NCBI GenBank assembly: GCA_947459535.1
Contig: CANHDY010000002.1
Span: 1-61,268 of the forward strand
Source of the DNA: Rickettsiales bacterium
GTDB lineage: Bacteria; Pseudomonadota; Alphaproteobacteria; Rickettsiales; SXRF01
Direction: 5' to 3'
Length of the DNA stretch: 61,268 nucleotides
This document shows positions 33,020 to 49,132 of the stretch, in pieces. The notes beneath the pieces are model-generated. The model was not told the origin of the DNA. It did not search any database and worked only from the letters and a program-made list of their open reading frames with translations. A program made the translations under genes and the position numbers. The first letter of the stretch is position 1; the number at the start of each line of letters is the position of its first letter.

Positions 33020-33223
33020 ATGACAAAACCCAAATATCCCAACGTGCATGTGCAGCTGGTCGGTCAGGATGGCAATGCCTTTATGATTCTTGGTCTCTGC
33101 CAACGCGCTGCAAATAAAGCGGGGCTTCCAAAATCCGAAATCGAGGCCTTCATGCAAGAGGCAAAATCAGGCGATTACAATCACCTGCTGAATACCTGCA
33201 TGGCGTGGTTCGATATTGATTAG
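33020..33223 (+). CDS. hypothetical small phage protein
   Basis: TAAGGAG precedes the ATG at 33020. Confidence 0.5.
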   Translation: MTKPKYPNVHVQLVGQDGNAFMILGLCQRAANKAGLPKSEIEAFMQEAKSGDYNHLLNTCMAWFDID

Positions 33224-34461
33224 GGAGCGCACATCATCGCATCCACTTTTTTAATCCGCTCACCCAGCCAGCGCATCGTGCCGGTGTGCATGCTATTGCC
33301 AAGCGCCTTGTAGCGCGGCCCATCGGCGGCGGGTTTTCCGCGATAGGGAATCAACGTATAATCATCGGGAAATCCCTGCAGCCGCTCACACTCACGCGGC
33401 GTTAATCGCCGCACCGCCATATCCGCCAGCACAGCGGGTTGATTATCTCCCATCTCCGCACGTAGCGTTGAGCAGGTTTCCCGCAAATCGGTCGGCCCTG
33501 CGTTTCGAGCGATGCTTCCAGGCTCGAAGGCGATGTAGGTGGAGCGGTCGCCACCGGCGGTGACGGTTTTGGATTGCTCGGTTTCGTTTACATACATGCC
33601 GCCGTTCGGGCGGTCTTTGCGTTTGCCATTGGCATCGCAGTAGGTGACGTTGTAGGCACGCGCTGGAACGAACAATTCTGCACCATTTAAAGCATGTTGA
33701 TCTTCCAGTCCCATTTTATCGCCAAAATGCGCGTTGAGTGTTGACGCAATAGTTGCTGGCCATTTTTTGGTAATCAGGTTCTCCGTGCCGCCACCACAGT
33801 CTCCGCCATTAGCACGGATAGTTCCTACGCCTTCACGGTAGCCTCCAATGCTGCTTTGAGTAAAGCTGGTAGAGTTTTCCCGCGTTTCTCGGCGCGGCGT
33901 AATATCCCGCTGCAGGCTTTCGCGCTCAAATAATACCGCTGTGGCAGGTCGCCAGTCTCCAATATATCCGATAACGAACACACGCCTGCGTCGCTGTGGC
34001 ACTCCGAAATACTGAGCGTCAAGAATGCGGTAGGCGAACCCATACCCGCATTCCGCCAACGCGCCGAGGAAGGTGCCAAATGTCCGTCCTCCGTCAATCG
34101 ACAGCACACCGGGGACATTTTCCCAAACCACCCATCGTGGCTTTGTGCTTTGAGCAAGGCGAATAAATCCGAGTGCGAGGTTGCCCCGGTCGTCAGCAAG
34201 TCCTCTGCGAAGTCCTGCGATGCTAAAGGATTGGCAAGGCGTTCCTCCGACCAGAAGGTCAATTGCTCCATAATCATTTTCCGTGAGTGTCGTGAAATCA
34301 CCGAAGAGAGGCACATTAGGATAATGATGCGAAAGCACCGCGCGGGCGAAGGGTTCAATTTCGGAAAATCCTGCCGCCTCAAATCCGAGCGGATGCCACG
34401 CCACTGTTGCTGCCTCAATGCCGGAACATACCGACAGATAGCGAATGGGTTTGGCATCCAT
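33220..34461 (-). CDS. DNA (cytosine-5)-methyltransferase, orphan
   Basis: Motifs SVCSGIEA (I), GGTPCQSFSIAG (IV), ENVPG (VI), QRRRRVFVIG (VIII), RRLTPRECERLQGFPDDY (IX), GNS (X). Confidence 0.9.
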   Translation of the reverse strand: MDAKPIRYLSVCSGIEAATVAWHPLGFEAAGFSEIEPFARAVLSHHYPNVPLFGDFTTLTENDYGAIDLLVGGTPCQSFSIAGLRRGLADDRGNLALGFIRLAQSTKPRWVVWENVPGVLSIDGGRTFGTFLGALAECGYGFAYRILDAQYFGVPQRRRRVFVIGYIGDWRPATAVLFERESLQRDITPRRETRENSTSFTQSSIGGYREGVGTIRANGGDCGGGTENLITKKWPATIASTLNAHFGDKMGLEDQHALNGAELFVPARAYNVTYCDANGKRKDRPNGGMYVNETEQSKTVTAGGDRSTYIAFEPGSIARNAGPTDLRETCSTLRAEMGDNQPAVLADMAVRRLTPRECERLQGFPDDYTLIPYRGKPAADGPRYKALGNSMHTGTMRWLGERIKKVDAMMCAP

Positions 34462-35263: not shown

Positions 35264-36499
35264 TTATCGTTCCTGCGTCAGCGCCGCAAACGACTGGCCT
35301 GTTTCCTCCAGCGTTGCTTCCTTGCCGGTAAATTCCTGCCAGCGGCGAATGATGACATCGCAATATTTCGGGTCGAGTTCGATAAGACAAGCACTGCGGC
35401 CTGTTTTTTCGCAGGCGATGAGCGTCGAGCCGGAGCCACCGAACGGGTCGAGCACGATGTCGCGGCTCTTGCTGGAATTTTCCACCGCCCGTTGCACAAG
35501 CTCCACCGGCTTCATGGTGGGGTGGAGGTCATTAGACACGGGCTTATTGAAAAACCACACATCGCCCTGGTTGCGCGCGCCGCACCAGAAATGGGCGGTG
35601 CCTTCTTTCCAGCCATAGAGGATGGGTTCATACTGCCGTTGGTAATCAGCGCGCCCCATCGTGAACGTATTCTTCGCCCAGATGATAAATGTCGACCAGT
35701 GGCCGCCCGCTTTGCGGAAGGCGCTTTGAAGCGTGTCCAGCTCGGATGACGACATGCAGATGTAAATCGCGCCCTTGCACACGGCGACGAAATTCGTGCA
35801 GGCCTCCAGCAGGAACTCCTCAAACTCCGCACCGAGATTGTCATTTTTGATGGTACGTTTGTTCCCGCGCATTTTGTCTTTCGCGGTGGCACCGTAATTC
35901 ACATTGTAGGGCGGATCGGTAAATACCATATCGGCAAGGCTTCCGCCTAACACACGCTCCACCGCATCGAGCTTGGTGGAATCGCTGCAGAGCAGGCGGT
36001 GCGACCCCAGCAGCCATAGATCTCCGGGCTGGCTAATAGCGATGGCTTCCACCTCCGGTACCGCATCGTCTTCGGTGTTGCCAACTTCCGTCATGGGGGC
36101 GAGCAGCTTATCCAGCTCGTCCTCGCTGAAGCCCATGATATCGAGATTAAAATCTTCCGCCTGCAGGTCGGTCAGCTCCAGCCGCAGCATTTCTTCATCC
36201 CATCCCGCATTCATGGCGATACGGTTATCGGCGATGATCAGCGCGCGTTTTTGTGTTTCGCTTAAATGTGCGAGCATAATGGCGGGGACTTCATTCATGC
36301 CCAGCCGCTGCGCTGCGAGCAAACGACCATGTCCTGCGATGATGCCTTGGTGCTGATCAATCAAGATTGGATTTACAAATCCGAACTCGGCGATGGATGC
36401 CATGATCTGCGCGATCTGCTCATCCGAATGGGTACGCGCATTACGCACGTAAGGAATCAGCCGCTCGATGGAATAGCTGGTGATGGAAAGATCGGTCAT
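35264..36499 (-). CDS. ParB-like nuclease domain fused to an N6A/N4C DNA methyltransferase, orphan
   Basis: N-terminal LIPYVRNARTHSDEQI...GHGRLLAA (ParB/Srx fold), then FTDPPYNVNY and LDPFGGSGSTLIACE. The true ATG is at 36499; the track extension to 36760 crosses a terminator. Confidence 0.85.
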   Translation of the reverse strand: MTDLSITSYSIERLIPYVRNARTHSDEQIAQIMASIAEFGFVNPILIDQHQGIIAGHGRLLAAQRLGMNEVPAIMLAHLSETQKRALIIADNRIAMNAGWDEEMLRLELTDLQAEDFNLDIMGFSEDELDKLLAPMTEVGNTEDDAVPEVEAIAISQPGDLWLLGSHRLLCSDSTKLDAVERVLGGSLADMVFTDPPYNVNYGATAKDKMRGNKRTIKNDNLGAEFEEFLLEACTNFVAVCKGAIYICMSSSELDTLQSAFRKAGGHWSTFIIWAKNTFTMGRADYQRQYEPILYGWKEGTAHFWCGARNQGDVWFFNKPVSNDLHPTMKPVELVQRAVENSSKSRDIVLDPFGGSGSTLIACEKTGRSACLIELDPKYCDVIIRRWQEFTGKEATLEETGQSFAALTQER

Positions 36500-36514
36500 G
36501 GTATTCTCAGGTGC

Positions 36515-36529
36515 GAACCGAGTGCGAAC
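36515..36529 (-). promoter_or_regulatory. candidate alphaproteobacterial LexA (SOS) box GTTC-N7-GTTC
   Basis: Plus strand GAAC-cgagtgc-GAAC at 36515-36529, 15 nt upstream of the ParB-methyltransferase ATG. A third GAAC lies at 36533-36536. Confidence 0.45.
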
Positions 36530-36683
36530 TGCGAACCCGGATTTTATACCTATCGCTAAAAAAGTGGCGCGGCTTTGCCCCCCGCATACGTTCCAGGCAC
36601 GGGGAGGACCCGTGGCTTGCCGATGCGATGTAGGATAGCGGGAGATGGGCGGAAAGCCGCGCCGAGCGGCAGGGAGTGAACAA

Positions 36684-36707
36684 TAAAAAACCCGCTGATG
36701 AGCGGGT
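36684..36707 (-). terminator. intrinsic terminator of the antiporter/ybdK/nhaA operon
   Basis: Minus strand ACCCGCT-catc-AGCGGGT followed by TTTTTTATT. Confidence 0.7.
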
Positions 36708-36792
36708 TCGGGCGAACACAATTGTTCGACTATGCAAAAATACATATCATCTAGGTGCACCTACTGTCAACAGTTAGGTTCGCGCTAAACTC

Positions 36793-38001
36793 TTATTTGG
36801 CTGTCCTGCAAACAATTCGCAGCACAATCCCACCCCACAAGATACAAAGCAACGAACCGCTGATAACACCAACCTTCACCATTTCCTGCAAGTGCGGGTC
36901 GGAGAATGCCAGCATCCCAATAAACAGACTCATGGTGAAGCCGATACCGGCGATGATGGATACGGCGTAGAGATGTTTCCACTGCGTTGCATCGGGCATA
37001 CTCACCAGTTTGGTTTTAATCAGCAGCCATGAGGTGCCGAAGATGCCGATTTGTTTGCCGACGAATAGGCCGAGCGCAATGCCCAGCGGCAGCGGCTCAA
37101 GGAAACTGGAAAGGTTAAGCCCTTCCAAGCTAACTCCGGCACTGGTGAAAGCGAATATCGGCAGCACCACAAAGCTCACCCACGGATGCAGAAAGTGCAT
37201 ACAGCTATTCAGCGGCGAATGGTTCGGTTCATCCTTATCACGCATAGGAATCATCAACCCGACAATGACCCCAGCAAGCGTGGTATGAATGCCGGAATAG
37301 TAAAAGCAGAACCACAGGAACACGCCGATCAATATATACGGCGTGATAACAGCAATATTGGCGCGGTTAAGCAGAGCAAGTGCGGCGATGCCACCAGCGG
37401 CCAGTAGCAGCGGCATGACAGCAAGCCCGGTATTATAAAACGCAGCGATGACAAGGATTGCGCCAAGGTCATCAAAGATAGCCACGGCCAGCAGGAATAT
37501 CTTGATGGCCGGTGGAATACCTTTCCCCAGCAGCGTTAGAATCGCCAGCGCAAAGGCAATATCCGTGGCGGATGGAATCGCCCATCCATGAACCGTATCC
37601 GGGTTGGCATGATTCAAGCCAAAGAAAATCAGCGCCGGAATCGCCATCCCGCCAGCAGCGGCGAATAACGGTAATAAAATCTGGTCGCGTTTGGACAAAA
37701 AGCCCTCACACATTTCGCGCTTAAGTTCCAAGCCGATAATCAGGAAGAAGAACACCATGAGGATGTCCTTCACCCAGTCTTTCAGCGCATGGGTTGCCAT
37801 GTTTTCCTGAAAGCCGAAGGTGACAGGGGCGCTTACCAGTTCTTTATACATTGCTGAAAACGACGAATTTGCTGCTAACACTGCCAATAATGCAAACGCG
37901 ATCATCACGATGCCGCTGGACGATTCCGTTTCCATGAATTCGCGGATACGGCGTGGCAGAACGCCTTGGCGCACAGAGGTTATTTCGGATGGGTGTTGCA
38001 T
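36793..38001 (-). CDS. nhaA: Na+/H+ antiporter NhaA
   Basis: About 12 TM segments, and a FFLIIGLELKRE motif plus the IFDDLGAI (Asp-Asp) motif characteristic of NhaA. Confidence 0.85.
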   Translation of the reverse strand: MQHPSEITSVRQGVLPRRIREFMETESSSGIVMIAFALLAVLAANSSFSAMYKELVSAPVTFGFQENMATHALKDWVKDILMVFFFLIIGLELKREMCEGFLSKRDQILLPLFAAAGGMAIPALIFFGLNHANPDTVHGWAIPSATDIAFALAILTLLGKGIPPAIKIFLLAVAIFDDLGAILVIAAFYNTGLAVMPLLLAAGGIAALALLNRANIAVITPYILIGVFLWFCFYYSGIHTTLAGVIVGLMIPMRDKDEPNHSPLNSCMHFLHPWVSFVVLPIFAFTSAGVSLEGLNLSSFLEPLPLGIALGLFVGKQIGIFGTSWLLIKTKLVSMPDATQWKHLYAVSIIAGIGFTMSLFIGMLAFSDPHLQEMVKVGVISGSLLCILWGGIVLRIVCRTAK

Positions 38002-38033
38002 AATCTATTTCCTGTTTTTATTCTCGTGCGGTT

Positions 38034-39152
38034 TTAGCTCCCACGGAATGTGTTTAATGCGGCATCGACCATGCCCTCGGCGCTGCCTCGGTCATCATAT
38101 TGCTTTCGCAGGTAATGCGCGTCACTTCCACGGTGGCTGACGGCGGCAAGATGTTCCAGCGCGGGTAAACTTTCCAACGAATCGCAGTATGGTTCAATCA
38201 GGCGCAATGTGGAAAGTATATCTTCACGCAATGAAAGTGTTTCATAGGATTTAGGATGCACGATAGAGCCTTCCAGCCCGAAGCGGCACGCCTGAAAGCG
38301 GTTGTAGTTATAAACGAGGTAATCATCTTCAATCGGCGGCGGCTCGTGGCGTTCCAGCAGGTATTTGCATAATTCTTGCAGGTAACAGGCAAGCGCGGCA
38401 GCGTGTTTCACGCTCAGTGGCGTATCGCATACGCGCAGTTCAATCGTGCCATATTCCGGCTTCGGGCGAATATCCCAGTAAAAATCCTTCATGCTTTTGA
38501 CGATGCCGGTATGCTCCATCTTGGCAAAATAATTCTGCACGAAATCATCCCAGCTCAATGTGAATGGCGCACGGCCAGAGAGTGGAAACGCAAATACGGA
38601 ATTAAGCCGTGCCGAGTTAAACAATGTATCTTTGCCCTGCACGAAGGGTGATGAAGCGGATAGCGCAATAAAGTGCGGAATATAGCGGTTCAGCGAATGC
38701 AGTAGGAACATCGCATCATCGCCGGAAGCACAGCCAATATGCACATGCTGGCCGAAGATGGTGAATTGTTTGGCAAGATAACCATATAGCGCCGACACTT
38801 CGCGGAAGCGTGGTTTAGAAAATATCTTTTGCTCCGACCAGTTTTGGAACGGGTGCGTTCCGCCGCCGCAGATACCAATGTTCAATCTATCGGCGGCGTC
38901 GACTAACGTCGTTTTTATTTCCTGCAACTGCCCCAACAAACCAGAATGGTTCGTGTGAATGCTGGTTGCTATCTCAATCATGCTTTCGGCAATTTCCGGC
39001 ATCACCGTGCCGGGGAATGGTTTGCGTTCTAGCAGATGCAGCAGATCGGGGCTGGATGCGGTGAGGTTAAAATCAGACAGGCTAACCAGCTGCAATTCCA
39101 GTTCCACGCCCATTGTTAGCGCATCGGATGTTTTGAATGGCTCTAACGGCAT
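38034..39152 (-). CDS. ybdK: carboxylate-amine ligase, YbdK / glutamate-cysteine ligase family 2
   Basis: [13 protein letters not shown]-terminus, GGGTHPF and HVHIG motifs. Confidence 0.8.
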
Positions 39153-40339
39153 CAGCTTCCCTCCTTGTGAGGGGTTTCTTTCGCCCAGATCAGCGCACGC
39201 TGCGTGATAACAGGGCCAAGTATTTCCATGAACAGGGTCATAGCGGCTAATGCCGCCAATTCATCGACAAATTCTATGCCCAGATATTTTGCCTGTTCCA
39301 GCACCAGAATCACGAAGACGGATATAGGAGCCAGTGCCAGCCCCGTGAGCAAACCTTTATGCCATGACACACCACTCACATGCGCGAACGCTGCCACACC
39401 GATGGTCTTGGTAAAAAGTCGTGCGGCGATTAATAGCAAGCCGAGGCTTGCCCCCGCCCAGACTTTTTGCCATTCTAGCGTGGCAACCACGAATACGAAC
39501 AGCAGCACCGTCAGCAATTCACCCAGCGCACCGAAATTACGCTGCGTCTGGCTGAACGAAATCCGGCGATGGCGTGCCACCATTCCAAAGGTCAGTGTTG
39601 CCAGTACCGGCGAAAGTTTGGCCGCATGGGTAACGGCCACCAGCAAAATCACTGCTAGCGCGAATGCCACCGTACCATCCTGCGTTAAATTACCGAGCCG
39701 CCGCATGATGCTCGGTATCAACAGACCGAATATTGCTCCCAGTATGGCGGAAATAAAAAGCACCGACAGGCCACCCGATGCCGCTTCCCAAAGATTGCCG
39801 GAACTCTTGAATACAGAAAACGCGACAATCACCTTAAAGATAAATACTGCCAGTACGCAGTTAATGGCCGATAAATGCAGTATGCGTTCTGTGACCTGGC
39901 CGGAACTGCGCTGCTCATTGATAACGCGCAAAATGCCAGCTGGTGACGTGGACATGGCAAGTGATGCAAGCAGCAGCGCGTTGAGCGACGATGTGCCATA
40001 CCAACCGGCAATGCAGTAAACGACGATAAAAGTGCCGATGGATTCCACCAGCCCCGTCACACCTATCCACGGGTTTGTGCGTAGCCAGCGCAGGTTAATG
40101 CGATAGCCCAGTTCAAATAGAATCAGGCCAAATGCGATGTTGGCAAGAAACAGCATCGAGCCATATTCGCGGCTCGGCAGAAAACCCATTTGCGTATGCG
40201 CCAATGCGAAGCCAACCAGCCCGTAGATGCTGATGCGCGGCAAGCCAGTCCAGCGAGCGCCAAACTCTCCGGCTATCCATGCAATCACAACAGCAAGTGA
40301 CCACGCAACATCAGGTGAAAGTGATAATAAATCAGTCAT
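39152..40339 (-). CDS. cation:proton antiporter (Na+/H+ exchanger superfamily)
   Basis: 395 aa, about 11-12 TM segments, with CPA-type composition. Its stop overlaps the ybdK start (TGATG). Confidence 0.75.
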
Positions 40340-40413
40340 ATAGGGTTTATAGAATTGATATGCTTACAGGGCAAGATTTAATGCCCGTAACTAAGATTCT
40401 GCGAAGATATAAA

Positions 40414-40971
40414 CTATAGCGACTTGAATGACTCCACCAACTCATCGAGTGCTTCACGCAGGCGGATGATGCCATAGCCTTTGCGCCAGCCGCGCGCGGC
40501 TTCGTATTCATTCAGCCCTTCACCGTGGCAACAGATCTCCTGCACCATGCGCCGCGACTCATGATTAAGGTTGCGGAGGAGACGCTCGTGAAAGTTCAGC
40601 GCTTCGATCTGTATCTCCAGCGGGTACGCACCCACGTTGATGCCCTTATCAAACACCATCGGCACCAGCTCACGCGACATGCGCGGCTGCGCTTTCTCGT
40701 AGTTGCAAGCAATGCGGTCGGCAGCACGGTATTGCGTATCACTGATGCCACGGCGATGCTGTTCACCGATGCCACTTTCCTCATCGATCTTGTAGAGGCG
40801 GTGGTATTTATCGATGGGGCGTTTATCACGCACCCGCGTGGCTGTGGTCTTGCGGTCGAGATACACCGTCTCTAGCTTCACCTTTGCCTGAAACTCCGGC
40901 GTGCCGCGATCCGCCTCCAGTTGGATGGCGTGCGTGCGTTGGCGTGGTTTGCGTTGCTTCTTGCCCATCAC
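40414..40971 (-). CDS. DUF6456-like phage early protein
   Basis: C-terminal RRMVQEICCHGEGLNEYEAARGWRKGYGIIRLREALDEL resembles the DUF6456 signature (VCC..GL...E...GW). Assigned from memory. Confidence 0.45.
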   Translation of the reverse strand: MMGKKQRKPRQRTHAIQLEADRGTPEFQAKVKLETVYLDRKTTATRVRDKRPIDKYHRLYKIDEESGIGEQHRRGISDTQYRAADRIACNYEKAQPRMSRELVPMVFDKGINVGAYPLEIQIEALNFHERLLRNLNHESRRMVQEICCHGEGLNEYEAARGWRKGYGIIRLREALDELVESFKSL

Positions 40972-44184: not shown

Positions 44185-45417
44185 ATGACAGTAAAACTTA
44201 CCAAAAAATCCATCGACGCATTTGAGGCCACCGGCAAACTTGAATATCTGTGGGATGCCGAGGTGAAGGGATTCGGGGTGGTCATCACCCCAGCGGGCAG
44301 TAAATCCTTCATCCTGAATTACCGCAACCAGGACAACCGTTCACGCCGCAAGACCATCGGCAAGTACGGTCATCTTACGCTTGAGCAGGCGCGGGATTTT
44401 GCCCGTGAACTGACCTATCGAATTGCCAAGGGTGAAGACCCCGTGCATCAGGACGAAATGCAGCGCAGCCAGCCCACCTTTGCTGAAGTGGCACAGCGTT
44501 TTCTCGATGACCATAGCGCCATACGCAGCCGCCCTGCAACGCACGCCAGCAATATACAAATTCTGGCACACATGGTGCTGCCGCATTTTGGGAAAATGAA
44601 AATCCGCTCCATCGAGCGCAAGGATATTTACGATTACCTTGCCAAAAATCGGCATCGTCCCATCGGTGCCAACCGTTCTCTTGCCGCCATGTCATCCATC
44701 ATGAGCAAAGCGGAGTTGTGGGGCTACCGCGACCGCAACAGCAATCCATGTTTCGGCGTGGAGCGATTTCCCGAAAATCGACGCGAGCGGTTCCTGAGCG
44801 AACAGGAGTTCGCATCGCTGGAGTCGGCCATGCAGCGCGCCGAACGCAACCTTACGGAAAGCCCGCATGTGCTGGCGATGTTCCGCATCATGATGCACAC
44901 AGGCTGCCGCCCTGGCGAAGCGCGTCACCTGAAATGGGATTATGTCGATTTCACTAACCGTGTTATCCGCCTGCCCAAAGAAGCCACTAAGGAAAAACGC
45001 CCGAAGACGCTCTTCATCACGCCCTATATTGAGGGAGTGCTGAAAAATATCCGCCGCATGGAGGGAAATCCTTATGTAGTGGTAAGTGAACGCAATGACG
45101 GCAAGCCGATTATGGATGTGAAAAAACCGTGGGATCGCATCAAGAAGGCAGCGGGCATTACCACCGAACTGCATCTGCATGATTTGCGGCACAGCCATGC
45201 CAGCATGGCTAACGCGCTGGGCTACTCATTGCCGATGATTGGCGCGCTGCTCGGCCACACACAGGCGCAGACGACGCTGCGTTACGCCCACCTTGCCACC
45301 GACCATCTGCGTAAGGCAGCGGAGGACATCAGCAACCGAATCGCCAACGTGGCTCAAACCACCAGCCCCGTGCCACCGCACGACAAACCACGAGCGAATC
45401 TGCGGATGGTGAAGTGA
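44185..45417 (+). CDS. int: tyrosine integrase (P4-like, with DUF4102 N-terminal arm-binding domain)
   Basis: LWDAEVKGFGVVITPAGSKSFILNYR N-terminus. Catalytic residues in HTGCRPGEARHLKW, HDLRHS and LGHTQAQTTLRYAH. Confidence 0.9.
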   Translation: MTVKLTKKSIDAFEATGKLEYLWDAEVKGFGVVITPAGSKSFILNYRNQDNRSRRKTIGKYGHLTLEQARDFARELTYRIAKGEDPVHQDEMQRSQPTFAEVAQRFLDDHSAIRSRPATHASNIQILAHMVLPHFGKMKIRSIERKDIYDYLAKNRHRPIGANRSLAAMSSIMSKAELWGYRDRNSNPCFGVERFPENRRERFLSEQEFASLESAMQRAERNLTESPHVLAMFRIMMHTGCRPGEARHLKWDYVDFTNRVIRLPKEATKEKRPKTLFITPYIEGVLKNIRRMEGNPYVVVSERNDGKPIMDVKKPWDRIKKAAGITTELHLHDLRHSHASMANALGYSLPMIGALLGHTQAQTTLRYAHLATDHLRKAAEDISNRIANVAQTTSPVPPHDKPRANLRMVK

Positions 45418-45475: not shown

Positions 45476-46633
45476 ATGGCTAAAAGTAAATACACATTCC
45501 ACGAGGATTTCAGCGGATCGGGCATGGCTCGGCTCGGCTTGGGCGATGCGTGGCAATGTGTTCGCGCCTGCGATATTGATGTTAAGAAATGCCGCGCCTA
45601 CCGAGAAAACTTTGGTGACGATCATCTGTATGAAGGCGATATCGCCAATGTAAATGTTCTTGGTGCAAAACCTGCGCGCCTTGCTTGGGCAAGTTTTCCT
45701 TGTCAGGATACGTCGCTGGCGGGCGGATATGCAGGACTTGCTGGTGAGCGCAGCGGCATGTTTTGGGCATGGATGCGTATCGTTGAAGGTATGGCCAATG
45801 CTGGAAAGCCGTTCGATATCGTGTGCGTGGAAAATGTGCGGGGGTTGTTAACCTCCAATGCAGGCACCGATTTCGCAGCAATTTGTGAAGCGCTGGCTAA
45901 GGCTGGTTATTGGATCGGATCGGCGGTGATTGATGCTTCCGATTTCTTGCCGCAGAGCCGTGAGCGTCTTTTTGTGGTAGGTATCCGGCTTGATAAGCGT
46001 CATCTCGATACCATCGTTTCAAAATCCCCCAATCCTTACTGGCATCCAGAATCCATGCTGCGTGCCTACGAGCATCTTACTAAGCGCGCGCGGGATAAAT
46101 GGTTCTGGCTCGAAATGCCTAAGCCCTCCTCAAAGCGCCTAACGCTTGAAGATATCATAACCGATCAGGCCGAAGGCGTAGAGTGGCACACTGCCGAGCA
46201 GACCGACCGCTTGATTGGCATGATGTCAGAAGAAAACCGTCGCAAACTCCGCGAACAGCAAGCCACTGGCAAACGATCCATCGGCACGTTATATAAACGT
46301 GTTCGCAACGGCCAGCAGCGCGCCGAGGTACGGTTCGATGGCATCGCTGGATGTCTGCGTACTGCCACAGGCGGCAGCAGCCGCCAAACCGTCATGATCG
46401 TGGAAGGCAAGAAAGTTCGCTCACGGTTGCTTGCGCCGCGTGAGGCCGCACGCCTCATGGGACTGCCGGATCACTATAAATTGCCGCAAAAATATAATGA
46501 TGCGTACCAGCTCTGCGGCGATGGTGTAGCAGTGCCGGTCGTGCGTTTCCTCGCAAAGACAGTATTTGAGCCGGTATTGGCGCGGATTGACGCATCGGAA
46601 GCCAAGAATTCCTCAGTTTTAGCAACTGCATAA
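45476..46633 (+). CDS. DNA (cytosine-5)-methyltransferase
   Basis: Motifs FSGSGM (I), FPCQDTSLAG (IV), ENVRGL (VI), QSRERLFVVG (VIII), REAARLMGLPDHY (IX), GDGVAVPV (X). Confidence 0.9.
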   Translation: MAKSKYTFHEDFSGSGMARLGLGDAWQCVRACDIDVKKCRAYRENFGDDHLYEGDIANVNVLGAKPARLAWASFPCQDTSLAGGYAGLAGERSGMFWAWMRIVEGMANAGKPFDIVCVENVRGLLTSNAGTDFAAICEALAKAGYWIGSAVIDASDFLPQSRERLFVVGIRLDKRHLDTIVSKSPNPYWHPESMLRAYEHLTKRARDKWFWLEMPKPSSKRLTLEDIITDQAEGVEWHTAEQTDRLIGMMSEENRRKLREQQATGKRSIGTLYKRVRNGQQRAEVRFDGIAGCLRTATGGSSRQTVMIVEGKKVRSRLLAPREAARLMGLPDHYKLPQKYNDAYQLCGDGVAVPVVRFLAKTVFEPVLARIDASEAKNSSVLATA

Positions 46634-46678
46634 TCCGTTGTAGCGGACTGAAAATAAATCGGTTAATCTCTGCCGATT

Positions 46679-47413
46679 ATGTCATCAAACTCACGTTCGC
46701 CATCCTCCGCCATCGATACTGTCGAAATGCCTTTCGACACCAATGCTCTGCGCAAAGGTTTAAAGTCATTCCTCGATCAGCCGGTGAGCGATCCGCGCGC
46801 GCCCAACGTCAAGCGCCTGGGCGGCTATAAGTTCGGCGTATACGCGTTTTACGATTATGATGATGAGCCGATCTATGTCGGCCAGACCCGCGAGAAACTT
46901 TCTGGTCGCATCGGCAGGCATCTCACCAACCAGCGCACTGATGCGGTGGCAATGAATGTGCTTGATCCTTACGAGGTTTATGCCGTGGCAGTATGGCCGT
47001 TGCCAGAATTCGAAGCGCGGTCGGGCAGTGATGCTGAAGTGAAAGCGCACCTTAATGCGCTCGAAGCAGCCGTATTCAATCAGCTGATGAAGGAATCAAA
47101 ATTCAGTGCTGTGCTGAATGAAAAAATCCCGCTCTTTGGCAAAGCTATCAAACCACCCAAGCCTTTTAAGGGAGTGATCATCAGTGATGAAGTGCGCGAT
47201 ATTCGTGGCCATCCCGATGTGCGCCTTGCACGCCGCGCTGCCACTATTGCGCGCCTGTCGCAAGTCATCTGCGAACGTGGCGACGTTCAGCCCGGACTGC
47301 GCCGCACGTTGCTGGTTCAGGCCGAGCGGCTCATGTGGCTTGCCAAAGAGCGCTATAAGCCGTTCGAGGCGCAAGCCATCGCGGAAGATGCGAATAAAGA
47401 CGAGGAATCGTAA
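46679..47413 (+). CDS. GIY-YIG domain nuclease (candidate restriction endonuclease)
   Basis: GVYAFYD-x5-PIYVGQT-x8-RIGRH, then LEAAVFNQL and LNEK (candidate Glu and Asn positions). The C-terminal ~100 aa are unassigned. Confidence 0.65.
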   Translation: MSSNSRSPSSAIDTVEMPFDTNALRKGLKSFLDQPVSDPRAPNVKRLGGYKFGVYAFYDYDDEPIYVGQTREKLSGRIGRHLTNQRTDAVAMNVLDPYEVYAVAVWPLPEFEARSGSDAEVKAHLNALEAAVFNQLMKESKFSAVLNEKIPLFGKAIKPPKPFKGVIISDEVRDIRGHPDVRLARRAATIARLSQVICERGDVQPGLRRTLLVQAERLMWLAKERYKPFEAQAIAEDANKDEES

Positions 47414-48846
47414 TGAGCATAGTCGAAAGCATCGAGAAGAATGTTGATAAGGTTGATTCGGCTCAAAAAGCTGTATTGCAGCGCATTCTGGACGCAGTTG
47501 ATTCCGCAAACCAAAAATTTAATATCGTTGAGCCATCCACTCAAAACGGGGAGAGCATAAATAGCGTTAAAGCGCGGCTTGTTTCAGCATTAGGCATGTT
47601 CAGGGGACTTGCAGCGGATGATGTTAATTTCACGCTTGTACCGTTTGCGTACCTGAACAATCTGGACGGACAACTTGTAAAGATATCTGCAGAACTAGAA
47701 AAAATTACTTCTGCTTTTAGCCAGATAGAAGCCAATGGTGGTATTGGCAGCATCAATCCATCTAATCAAACCATTACCAGTCAGAATGGACAGTTCAACT
47801 TTGATTTCACGCCTGTTTTTAATGCAATCGATACGCTTACCGATAATGCTCTGGACAGCTATTACAGAATCGGTTTCGTAATTGATAAGCCTGATTATTC
47901 GCAGATCGCAGCGATTACTGATGAGTTTACTGAAGTCCTTAATGACCTTGCGAAGAAGAAGAGTGAGCTGAGTGAAATTGCAAAATCATCAAACGATCTG
48001 AAGAAGAAAATTGAGAAGGCGAGTTCAGACACTGAATCGCAGTTTAAATCGGCAGAAGAGCTTGTAAAGCAAATCAACACCACCAAAACCCAAGCAGATA
48101 CTGCTGTAGCTAAGATAAACGAAATTGCTGATAAAGGAAATGCACAGGCTCCAGTAATTGAGCAGGTGTATCAAAAAGCTATAAGCCTCAAGAAGGATAT
48201 AGATGGCTACGAGCAGCAATTTAATAAATTCCAAACGGAGCTGGATACCAGACTCAAAAACTATACTGAAGGAAACACTCAGCTTGAACAATTGTTGAAG
48301 TCACTTCGTGAGCAAGAAGAGAAGATCAAATCAATCAATGAAGAGGCTAAATCTGCATTGAATTATGCTACTGTAGCGGGGTTAGCAAAAGGGTTCGGTG
48401 ACAGAAAAGATAATCTTTCTTCCGAGCAAGATACAGCTTTCAAGTCATTCAAAAATTCGCTTTGGTTATTCTTTTTCTCATCACTCATTCCTCTGGGCTA
48501 TCTTGCTTACAAAATTACCACAGGCGGTAAAATCGAGATTGAAGAGTTGTCGATGGCGCTATTGCCCGTAATCCCAGCAATAGTCTTCACCAAATTTGCG
48601 GCCAGCAAACATAATAACCTTTTCAAACTGCGTGAGCACTACGCACACAAATTTGCTGTGTCCTTCTCTCTGAAAGGCTTTAAAGATGAAATTAAGCCTG
48701 AAAACCAGCAGGGCATCGTGGAGGCAACATTCAAAGACCTTGCGGTTCATAATCCTGCAAATTCGATTGATAACCGAGATGGTGGAGAGAAGCACCCGTT
48801 ACCTTTCTGGGATTCAATCACCGGTTTCTTTTCGCCACGTAAGTAG
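47413..48846 (+). CDS. coiled-coil protein with C-terminal two-TM module, function unknown
   Basis: The ATG overlaps the upstream stop (TAATG). Long K/E/Q/S-rich helical region, then TM segments SLWLFFFSSLIPLGYLAY and LSMALLPVIPAIVFTKFAA. Visibly A+T-rich. Confidence 0.6.
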   Translation: MSIVESIEKNVDKVDSAQKAVLQRILDAVDSANQKFNIVEPSTQNGESINSVKARLVSALGMFRGLAADDVNFTLVPFAYLNNLDGQLVKISAELEKITSAFSQIEANGGIGSINPSNQTITSQNGQFNFDFTPVFNAIDTLTDNALDSYYRIGFVIDKPDYSQIAAITDEFTEVLNDLAKKKSELSEIAKSSNDLKKKIEKASSDTESQFKSAEELVKQINTTKTQADTAVAKINEIADKGNAQAPVIEQVYQKAISLKKDIDGYEQQFNKFQTELDTRLKNYTEGNTQLEQLLKSLREQEEKIKSINEEAKSALNYATVAGLAKGFGDRKDNLSSEQDTAFKSFKNSLWLFFFSSLIPLGYLAYKITTGGKIEIEELSMALLPVIPAIVFTKFAASKHNNLFKLREHYAHKFAVSFSLKGFKDEIKPENQQGIVEATFKDLAVHNPANSIDNRDGGEKHPLPFWDSITGFFSPRK

Positions 48847-48907
48847 ATGCATATCAGCACAAAACAGATGCAGGCGCAGTCATGTCAGCACCATATCAAC
48901 AATAGGC

Positions 48908-49000
48908 TTGGAAATGTTTGGAAATGTGCGTAGATTGACCTCGTGCCGCTAGGGGCTGAAACCCGCTGATTTTGGTATTGTTTGGCATTTATTGTTATTG
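48908..49000 (+). repeat. five TTGGWAWTGT-like 10-mers, candidate integrase arm-type sites
   Basis: TTGGAAATGT occurs twice in perfect tandem (48908-48927). TTGGTATTGT / TTGGCATTTA / TTGTTATTGT follow in tandem (48971-49000). Confidence 0.35.
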
Positions 49001-49021
49001 TCAATCAATAACTTAAATGGC

Positions 49022-49066
49022 TTTCGTAATGCGTAGGTCGCAGGTTCGACTCCTGTAGACGGCACC
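49022..49066 (+). pseudogene. 3' half of tRNA-Thr(CGU), from anticodon loop to CCA; putative att core
   Basis: TTCGTAA (anticodon CGT), TGCGT, variable AGGTC, T-arm GCAGG-TTCGACT-CCTGT, acceptor AGACGGC, then A-CCA. No matching 5' acceptor strand, D-arm or 5' anticodon-stem strand lies upstream. Confidence 0.7.
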
Positions 49067-49132
49067 ATTTACTTTCTAATTTGGCTGTGTCATAAGTGAT
49101 TGAATCCTCAGCAGTGTTGAGCACGAGCGTAT

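Follow-up and report, generated by a model that had tools for sequence, protein, structure and literature searches.

Probable division of a prophage-borne methyltransferase, GIY-YIG nuclease and membrane-protein locus into two independent cargo units

Introduction

Type II restriction-modification (R-M) systems of the Eco29kI/Cfr42I/NgoMIII and Hpy188I kind consist of an m5C methyltransferase (MTase) that adjoins a small nuclease of the GIY-YIG fold, and they occur as mobile cassettes on plasmids and prophages. A comparable gene order, in which a small nuclease gene follows that of a C5 MTase and the stop and start codons overlap, is found in dcm-vsr operons. In the anti-phage protein SNIPE (PD-lambda-1), an N-terminal transmembrane segment, a DUF4041 domain and a C-terminal GIY-YIG nuclease are joined in one polypeptide (bioRxiv 10.1101/2025.11.03.685801). 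We analysed three genes with features of these systems in a 61,268-nucleotide stretch of a Rickettsiales bacterium (contig CANHDY010000002.1, positions 1 to 61,268; hereafter the window), where they occupy the integrase-proximal right end of a ~40-kb siphovirus-type prophage. Cargo slots of P2/P4 type beside the integrase and the attachment site are known as defence hot spots.

The genes encode a C5 cytosine DNA MTase, a GIY-YIG nuclease family protein and a 477-residue membrane coiled-coil protein. An earlier annotation made from the letters of this DNA (the sequence-only reading) had placed them on the plus strand at 45476–46633, 46679–47413 and 47413–48846, which is exactly where they were recovered, and had taken them for a single undescribed module coupling R-M to a membrane effector. 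Our analysis is best explained by two independent cargo units, with a probability of about 0.7: the MTase–nuclease pair (45476–47413) and the gene of the 477-residue protein.

Linkage, homology breakpoints and base composition

The pair was surveyed with one genome per species; 557 loci were confirmed, and 80 of them were retained for the analysis of gene content. A homologue of the window MTase was found directly upstream of the nuclease, on the same strand, in 78 of these, the remaining two being cut by contig ends; the linkage and co-conservation expected of a Type II R-M system were hence observed in all testable loci. The distance between the two genes was −4 to about +90 bp in most loci, with a 4-bp overlap being common, and six loci had one intervening gene. 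The sequence-only reading had named co-occurrence of all three genes across genomes as a test of its proposal, and it is here that the proposal fails, with a homologue of the 477-residue protein missing from 80 of the 80 pair loci. The same separation was observed from the other side, as none of 17 loci of the 477-residue family had an MTase or GIY-YIG neighbour, their neighbours being heterogeneous.

The closest relatives of the prophage (87–90% nucleotide identity) share with it the regulatory genes through the integrase, the MTase and the nuclease up to 47391–47400, that is, into the last four to seven nuclease codons. In blastn comparisons, homology to sister prophage L001 ended at 47391 and resumed at 48850, and homology to L106, L107 and L108 ended at 47400 and resumed at 48847. 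The stop codon of the 477-residue protein ends at 48846, so that homology resumes 1–4 bases past it, and then runs to 49067–49073. The breakpoints thereby delimit a variable cassette (47401–48846) that is replaced in the sister prophages, and base composition sets it apart as well: the GC content of the 477-residue protein's gene is 41.6% (42.3% at third codon positions), compared with 53.5–55.5% for the integrase, MTase and nuclease genes, a difference of 12–13 points.

In L001, the slot (L001:8753-11264) contains a complete Thoeris system, with ThsA (PADLOC 4e-200, SIR2 and STALD domains) followed by two ThsB TIR proteins (1.3e-76 and 8.4e-56). In L106–L111 it contains (L106:5599-9101) a 330-residue AAA ATPase and an 830-residue S8 peptidase, the latter being 39% identical, across 98% of its length, to S8 peptidases encoded on Ti-type plasmids of Agrobacterium; an AAA ATPase combined with an S8 protease is the architecture of the IetAS toxin–antitoxin pair (PMC5006074). 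The sisters therefore exchange exactly the gene of the 477-residue protein for Thoeris or the IetAS-like pair and keep the MTase and the nuclease. With IetAS, which we take to be a listed defence system, and Thoeris as alternative cargo between conserved flanks, the position is a prophage defence hot spot, and the view of the sequence-only reading that the junction of integrase and attachment site is a hot spot for cargo was borne out. Conserved flanks and gene-sized alternative cargo that includes bona fide defence systems are shared with the hot spots of P2/P4-type prophages and satellites. The present element differs from these in being an alphaproteobacterial siphovirus-type prophage and in having the 3′ end of an R-M-like nuclease gene as the left flank of its slot.

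A single defence system of all three genes, in which the R-M core would be coupled to the membrane coiled-coil protein as a membrane-tethered nuclease or as a hybrid of R-M and abortive infection, was rejected on co-occurrence, homology breakpoints and GC content, and we regard it as very improbable. What speaks for it is found mainly at the junction GAATCGTAATGAGC, where the nuclease stop and the start of the 477-residue protein overlap (TAATG), as had been noticed from the sequence, downstream of a Shine–Dalgarno-like GAGGA. The genes share a strand, and promoter and terminator scans of the region, which were at chance level, revealed no convincing terminator between the three. A second, independent sequencing run (L104) contains the same junction, which is therefore real rather than chimeric, yet lineage-specific. 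However, the left breakpoint falls inside the last codons of the nuclease, and the TAATG overlap, being at or just inside this breakpoint, is explained as a consequence of cassette insertion; it looks most simply like a by-product of that event and not like evidence of co-evolution. A stop/start overlap and a shared strand are thus insufficient to define a system.

A precedent for a membrane-anchored GIY-YIG defence nuclease does exist in SNIPE (bioRxiv 10.1101/2025.11.03.685801), which combines in phage defence the two properties that the sequence-only reading had imagined acting together. In the window, by contrast, nuclease and membrane protein are separate and not co-conserved, and neither matches DUF4041: hydropathy and Pfam analysis of the GIY-YIG protein revealed neither a hydrophobic segment nor that domain, and neither a nuclease domain nor DUF4041 was found in the 477-residue protein. 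The locus was accordingly not assigned to SNIPE. That the 477-residue protein might, in the lineage of the window, also tether or regulate the GIY-YIG nuclease in the manner of a split SNIPE is much less likely than a stand-alone role.

The methyltransferase

The first gene of the pair (45476..46633, plus strand) encodes a C5 cytosine DNA MTase of 385 residues. Its assignment follows from full-length profile matches to Pfam DNA_methylase PF00145 (4.5e-47 over residues 7–364) and TIGR00675 (2.3e-48; 165.5 bits against a cut-off of 100.65), from PADLOC matches to the DruM-type model PDLC00028 (2.8e-137, 455.7 bits) and to MTase_II PDLC03243 (5.1e-99), and from motifs I, IV, VI, VIII and X (FSGSGM, FPCQDTS, ENVRGL, QSRERLFVVG and GDGVAVPV), all of which are present in the translation as they had been quoted before. 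The public gene call (window 45476 versus L105:8112) starts 16 codons later and gives a protein of 369 residues. As this would delete motif I (FSGSG), the 385-residue start at 45476 is more plausible.

The high score against DruM raised Druantia type II (DruM-DruF-DruG-DruE) as a candidate. This was rejected after five other proteins of the locus had been scanned (the nuclease, the 477-residue protein, the integrase and the products of two genes downstream of the right attachment site), none of which matched a DruE, DruF or DruG model; no open reading frame of helicase size was present among those listed for 40–53 kb. The DruM match goes no further than membership of a common MTase subfamily. 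A further candidate relative was the Caulobacter MTase ScmA (YGCCGGCR). The paper that describes it (iScience 2026, PMC12907096) reports that this MTase is solitary and that a Vsr-like gene is unlinked to it, and mentions no GIY-YIG gene. No link between it and the MTase of the window was established.

The GIY-YIG protein

The second gene (46679..47413, plus strand) encodes a protein of 244 residues, the putative restriction endonuclease partner of the MTase. It matched Pfam GIY-YIG PF01541 with an E-value of 2.6e-5 and 24.9 bits (cut-off 22.6), over residues 51–102 only, and its translation contains every motif that had been quoted (GVYAFYD, PIYVGQT, RIGRH, LEAAVF and LNEK). A search for homologues returned 6404 proteins at E ≤ 1e-3; among the 120 listed, almost all are of about 225–265 residues and 53–98% identical to the window protein. 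Y55, Y66, G68, R77, H81, E129 and N147 are invariant across 30 aligned homologues (54–96% identical), and much of the Arg-rich C-terminal region is conserved as well (HPDxRLARRA...GLRRTL...RL..LA).

The AlphaFold2 (AF2) model, with a predicted local distance difference test (pLDDT) score of 83.5, comprises an N-terminal helix, the alpha/beta GIY-YIG core (residues about 51–150; 46829–47128, plus strand) and a long helical hairpin that coincides with the conserved Arg-rich segment (residues 170–238; 47186–47392, plus strand). The best folds retrieved from the PDB were the GIY-YIG domains of UvrC, with template-modelling (TM) scores, normalised to the target, of 0.61–0.70, probabilities up to 0.93 and E-values of about 0.3. 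Motif, catalytic residues and fold thus place the protein in the GIY-YIG superfamily, the fold E-value being weak. Relatedness to a characterised restriction endonuclease was not found in PADLOC models, PDB sequences or meaningful fold matches: no PADLOC (including its restriction-enzyme models), NCBIfam or PHROG entry was matched, and single-sequence and profile searches of PDB chains yielded nothing at E ≤ 10.

The analogy to Eco29kI and Cfr42I drawn in the sequence-only reading therefore holds at the superfamily level and no further. The resemblance consists of an m5C MTase beside a small GIY-YIG-fold nuclease and of the Tyr/Tyr/Arg/His/Glu/Asn catalytic positions, which are kept. In contrast, Hpy188I ranked 26th by fold, with TM scores of 0.13–0.18, the family of the window has an N-terminal helix and an Arg-rich C-terminal hairpin of its own, and its gene order is MTase, then nuclease. 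Membership of the Eco29kI family was rejected, as there was neither a PDB sequence or profile match nor fold support, Eco29kI not being among the 50 Foldseek matches listed.

The pair as a putative R-M cassette

At somewhat better than even odds, the pair is a Type II R-M cassette whose nuclease belongs to an uncharacterised GIY-YIG family. This assignment is suggested by the strict linkage, the order of MTase then nuclease together with translational overlap, the optional presence of Vsr, the intact catalytic residues and the promiscuous insertion of the pair; the earlier description of the MTase and GIY-YIG protein as resembling an R-M core is supported. In such a cassette, the MTase would methylate a short site on the resident DNA and the nuclease would cut the same site when it is unmethylated on incoming DNA.

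Promiscuous insertion is evident from the genes that flank the pair, with 92 Pfam families among 140 neighbours and none in more than three, and from its occurrence in temperate phages and on plasmids, where it is labelled merely as a “GIY-YIG nuclease family protein” beside dcm; the pair is consequently regarded as an autonomous mobile cassette. A family of ~150 residues was present in 20 of the 80 loci, immediately downstream of the nuclease in 18 and upstream of the MTase in two, and all three members that were scanned are Vsr. Vsr also follows the pair in L112. Where added, as in this quarter of the loci, it would repair the T:G mismatches that arise by deamination of 5-methylcytosine (5mC). 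This is a second point of contact with dcm-vsr operons, beyond the gene order and the overlapping stop and start codons. The nuclease of the pair differs from theirs in having a GIY-YIG and not the PD-(D/E)XK-like fold of Vsr, and it occurs alongside Vsr, not in its place.

Individual loci depart from the common pattern. On the 9.6-kb Polaromonas plasmid pW5NP1 (L100), the GIY-YIG and cytosine MTase genes are on opposite strands with parA and a small open reading frame between them, an exception to the otherwise strict tandem of MTase then nuclease. The GIY-YIG gene of Sphingobium boeckii DSM 25079 (L069:8001-8801) has an early in-frame stop next to an intact MTase gene. Conversely, L005 and L054 have frameshifted MTase genes and an intact nuclease; as L054 was assembled from long reads with canu, an indel error may account for its frameshift, whereas the assembly method of L005 is not stated.

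Alternatively, the GIY-YIG protein may be another kind of MTase-linked nuclease and no restriction enzyme, with any true restriction being provided by a different gene. It could then nick or repair DNA at lesions derived from 5mC, alongside Vsr or in its place, or it could be a homing-type endonuclease by which the cassette is spread. We consider this unlikely, despite several observations that fit it. The protein is dissimilar to every characterised restriction enzyme in the PADLOC, PDB sequence and fold searches, and its nearest folds are repair nucleases (UvrC). At ~50–60% identity among members from Proteobacteria, Acidobacteria, Gemmatimonadota and Desulfobacteria, it is also more strongly conserved than is usual for restriction enzymes. 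Moreover, a candidate for the restricting gene exists in p285, a separate family of ~285 residues in which four cysteines are invariant and for which neither Pfam nor the PDB gave a match. It accompanies the MTase in 10 of the 80 pair loci and in two temperate Burkholderia phages, and it could partner the methylase in place of the GIY-YIG protein or in addition to it. Its members include L053:7131-7985, L036:7103-7960, L026:9056-9979, L103:4646-5503 (Burkholderia phage Menos) and L102:2539-3393 (Burkholderia phage AH2). Arrays of MTase, p285, GIY-YIG and Vsr-like genes are found in some loci and in phage AH2 (MTase–p285–GIY-endonuclease), and phage Menos has MTase–p285–Vsr without a GIY-YIG gene.

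On the other hand, Vsr is additionally present in ~25% of the loci, which makes a role of the GIY-YIG protein as a substitute for Vsr unlikely. The p285 gene is confined to the 10 loci mentioned, whereas the GIY-YIG partner is universal in the set, and no recognisable nuclease signature was found in p285, a possible (D/E)xK motif not being conserved across the family. Finally, strict gene order, translational overlap and insertion into unrelated contexts are typical R-M behaviour. The idea that the gene intervening between MTase and GIY-YIG in six loci encodes, as p285, a paralogue of the nuclease was rejected, as direct comparison revealed no similarity.

Short palindromes were counted in the whole window in view of the putative R-M function. 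GGCC (187 observed versus 358 expected), CCGG (178 versus 292), CCGCGG (3 versus 26), CGGCCG (2 versus 17) and GCCGGC (8 versus 26) are all depleted, as is GATC. A strong depletion of this kind, spread over short GC-rich palindromes in general, would fit heavy R-M pressure. It was discarded as a guide to the recognition site, since it is general and indicates no single sequence.

The MTase-linked GIY-YIG family comprises more than 6400 proteins and is represented in at least 557 species-representative genomes, and it is missed by the PADLOC, NCBIfam and PHROG models. This very abundant, restriction-enzyme-like family is probably new. If its members are restriction enzymes, many “orphan” m5C MTases in Proteobacteria and beyond are parts of complete R-M systems, and estimates of R-M abundance and of the biology of solitary methylases would change.

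The 477-residue membrane protein

The cassette contains a single, solitary cargo gene (47413..48846, plus strand), which was characterised by family search, alignment and hydropathy. An exhaustive HMMER search returned 691 family representatives (50%-identity clusters) at E ≤ 1e-3 and 266 at E ≤ 1e-10; most of the 150 matches listed are full-length, typically with about 450–510 residues. The family alignment comprises, in order, a variable N-terminal region, a long helical region, an amphipathic motif, two hydrophobic segments and a tail. In the window protein, these correspond to an N-terminal helical/small-sheet domain in the AF2 model (residues 1–157; 47413–47883, plus strand), a long helical region (residues 160–340; 47890–48432, plus strand), the motif ATVAGLAKGF (residues 319–328, plus strand), which is nearly invariant in the family as GATVAGLA, a hydrophobic hairpin defined by hydropathy (residues about 346–368 and 373–399; 48448–48609, plus strand) and a conserved tail, LFKLREHYAHKF...NPA...HPLP (48610–48843, plus strand). 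The family version of this basic/aromatic tail reads LFRLREHYAYKYS...GFK...FNPAD...HPNP. Two hydrophobic segments had already been proposed in the sequence-only reading and were found again (about residues 350–368 and 373–399); hydrophobic stretches are present at the corresponding region in 40 of 40 aligned relatives (about residues 305–425 of their own sequences). Basic residues flank the hairpin and there is no signal peptide, which suggests that the large N-terminal part and the tail would both be cytoplasmic.

Annotation of the protein is sparse. PHROG 30912, whose function is not assigned, matched residues 282–447, including hairpin and tail, with an E-value of 1e-7, and the precomputed public Pfam label is DUF7121, for which a literature search found no paper that mentions it. 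Pfam, PADLOC and NCBIfam models returned coiled-coil noise only (SMC, JetC, LmuB, ATG17), a PDB sequence search gave no match, and no relative was found in a scan of viral contigs. The AF2 model, computed from a shallow alignment, has an overall pLDDT of 64.6, with 83–93 for the N-terminal domain (residues 1–157). Foldseek searches of this low-confidence model against the PDB and viral libraries yielded generic helical matches only, none of them informative.

A stand-alone anti-phage or superinfection-exclusion function is the most likely role of the 477-residue protein, at close to even odds, and is favoured because the sister prophages carry Thoeris or the IetAS-like pair in the same slot. 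The second unit (47401–48846) is, in our picture, a cassette of the size of one gene. It lies in a recombination hot spot bounded by the last nuclease codons and by the 220-bp conserved segment beside the right attachment site, and here it contains one low-GC gene for a putative inner-membrane protein, which would have a large cytoplasmic N-terminal helical/coiled-coil part, a transmembrane hairpin and a conserved cytoplasmic tail. Such a protein would act at the membrane, either as a pore or depolariser in abortive infection or by blocking entry; a membrane-disrupting or entry-blocking mechanism is plausible. We put forward more tentatively that the protein represents a widespread, so far undescribed family whose members would each act alone at the membrane in phage defence or superinfection exclusion and be swappable as cargo of prophage hot spots. 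The parts of such proteins may be a cytoplasmic helical sensor domain, a long coiled coil, the GATVAGLA motif, a transmembrane hairpin and a HYxxK...NPAD...HP.P tail, a division that is offered with the same reserve.

A competing explanation is that the protein has no immune function and is a lysogenic-conversion or housekeeping-type membrane protein, engaged in membrane remodelling or stress, adhesion or mobile-element maintenance, which happens to occupy a recombination-prone slot. This is the less likely alternative, and the surroundings of its relatives bear on it in both directions. Some lie beside ordinary genes or genes of plasmid transfer and replication: a 71%-identical copy stands alone between hemY-like and EPSP-synthase-family genes, and a distant homologue on a Campylobacter plasmid is found between transfer and replication genes, in a conjugative-plasmid setting. 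The absence of clear defence-island enrichment among 54 neighbours, the mere coiled-coil noise against the PADLOC defence models and the weak fold resemblances, which are to generic helical membrane-associated proteins such as IncA, VIPP1 and ESCRT-III, fit a non-immune protein as well. By contrast, the identical slot contains Thoeris or the IetAS-like pair in the sister prophages, and the gene is patchily distributed, compositionally foreign and often near integrases, resolvases or phage genes in other family members; on a Vibrio plasmid, a distant homologue adjoins an integrase and an Abi-family gene.

Against the picture of an R-M cassette next to an independent defence gene weigh the following points. 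Neither the PADLOC restriction-enzyme models nor PDB sequences gave a match to the GIY-YIG protein, whose fold likeness is limited to a generic UvrC-type core with weak E-values. Given the p285 arrays, this protein is not the sole candidate for the partner nuclease of the MTase family. PADLOC (2023) holds no model for the 477-residue protein; the 54 family neighbours that lack clear defence-island enrichment do include mobile-element genes, and location is the sole argument for a defence role. Lastly, only the right attachment site was found, the left end of the prophage being undefined within the window.

The delimited hot spot, which in near-identical prophages contains Thoeris, the IetAS-like pair or the gene of the 477-residue protein, is a cheap and specific means of nominating new defence genes in Alphaproteobacteria. 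One such nomination, as a defence candidate, is the sizeable and uncharacterised membrane-protein family to which the 477-residue protein belongs.

Prophage context and attachment site

PHROG matches between 12.9 and 31.2 kb of the window identified a tail protein, tape measure, minor tail protein, major head protein, protease, portal and large terminase. At the other end of the element, a tyrosine integrase of 410 residues (44185..45417, plus strand) precedes the MTase, with matches to Pfam Phage_integrase PF00589 (1e-23), Arm-DNA-bind_3 (4e-16) and PHROG 1 integrase (6.9e-67). The same 410-residue integrase is found upstream of the MTase and GIY-YIG genes in sister elements L001 and L106–L109.

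The presumed right attachment site (attR) is contained in a conserved right-end segment (48847..49067, plus strand) that is 88–91% identical in L001 and L106–L108. It includes, at about 49031–49067, a tRNA-like 3′ end with T-arm, acceptor strand and CCA, and the homology to the sister prophages stops at 49067–49073, within a few bases of this end. The acceptor-strand bases of the fragment differ between the window and L001. Neither a complete tRNA or tmRNA (ARAGORN, Rfam) nor a second copy of the attachment core was present in the 61-kb window, in which the tRNA-like fragment is unique. The placement of the three genes between integrase and attachment site, as had been proposed from the sequence, is therefore supported by the integrase, with its PF00589 and arm-binding domains, and by the right attachment site, but a second copy is missing from the window. 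Support for attachment is limited to the right-hand copy, and the prophage has a left end that either lies outside the window or is undefined.

Two other methylases are encoded on the minus strand of the prophage, a second C5 methylase (33220–34461; PF00145, 4.2e-56) and a fusion of a ParB N-terminal domain with an N6_N4 methylase (35264–36760). Both are probably orphan anti-restriction methylases of the phage. Between the ParB–N6 methylase and the DUF1376 region lies a block of three minus-strand genes (36794–40424) for an NhaA-type Na+/H+ antiporter, a protein of the GCS2 glutamate–cysteine ligase family and a Na+/H+ exchanger. The entire 3.6-kb block is absent from L001, in which its flanks are contiguous, and it is either ion-homeostasis cargo or a second variable slot.

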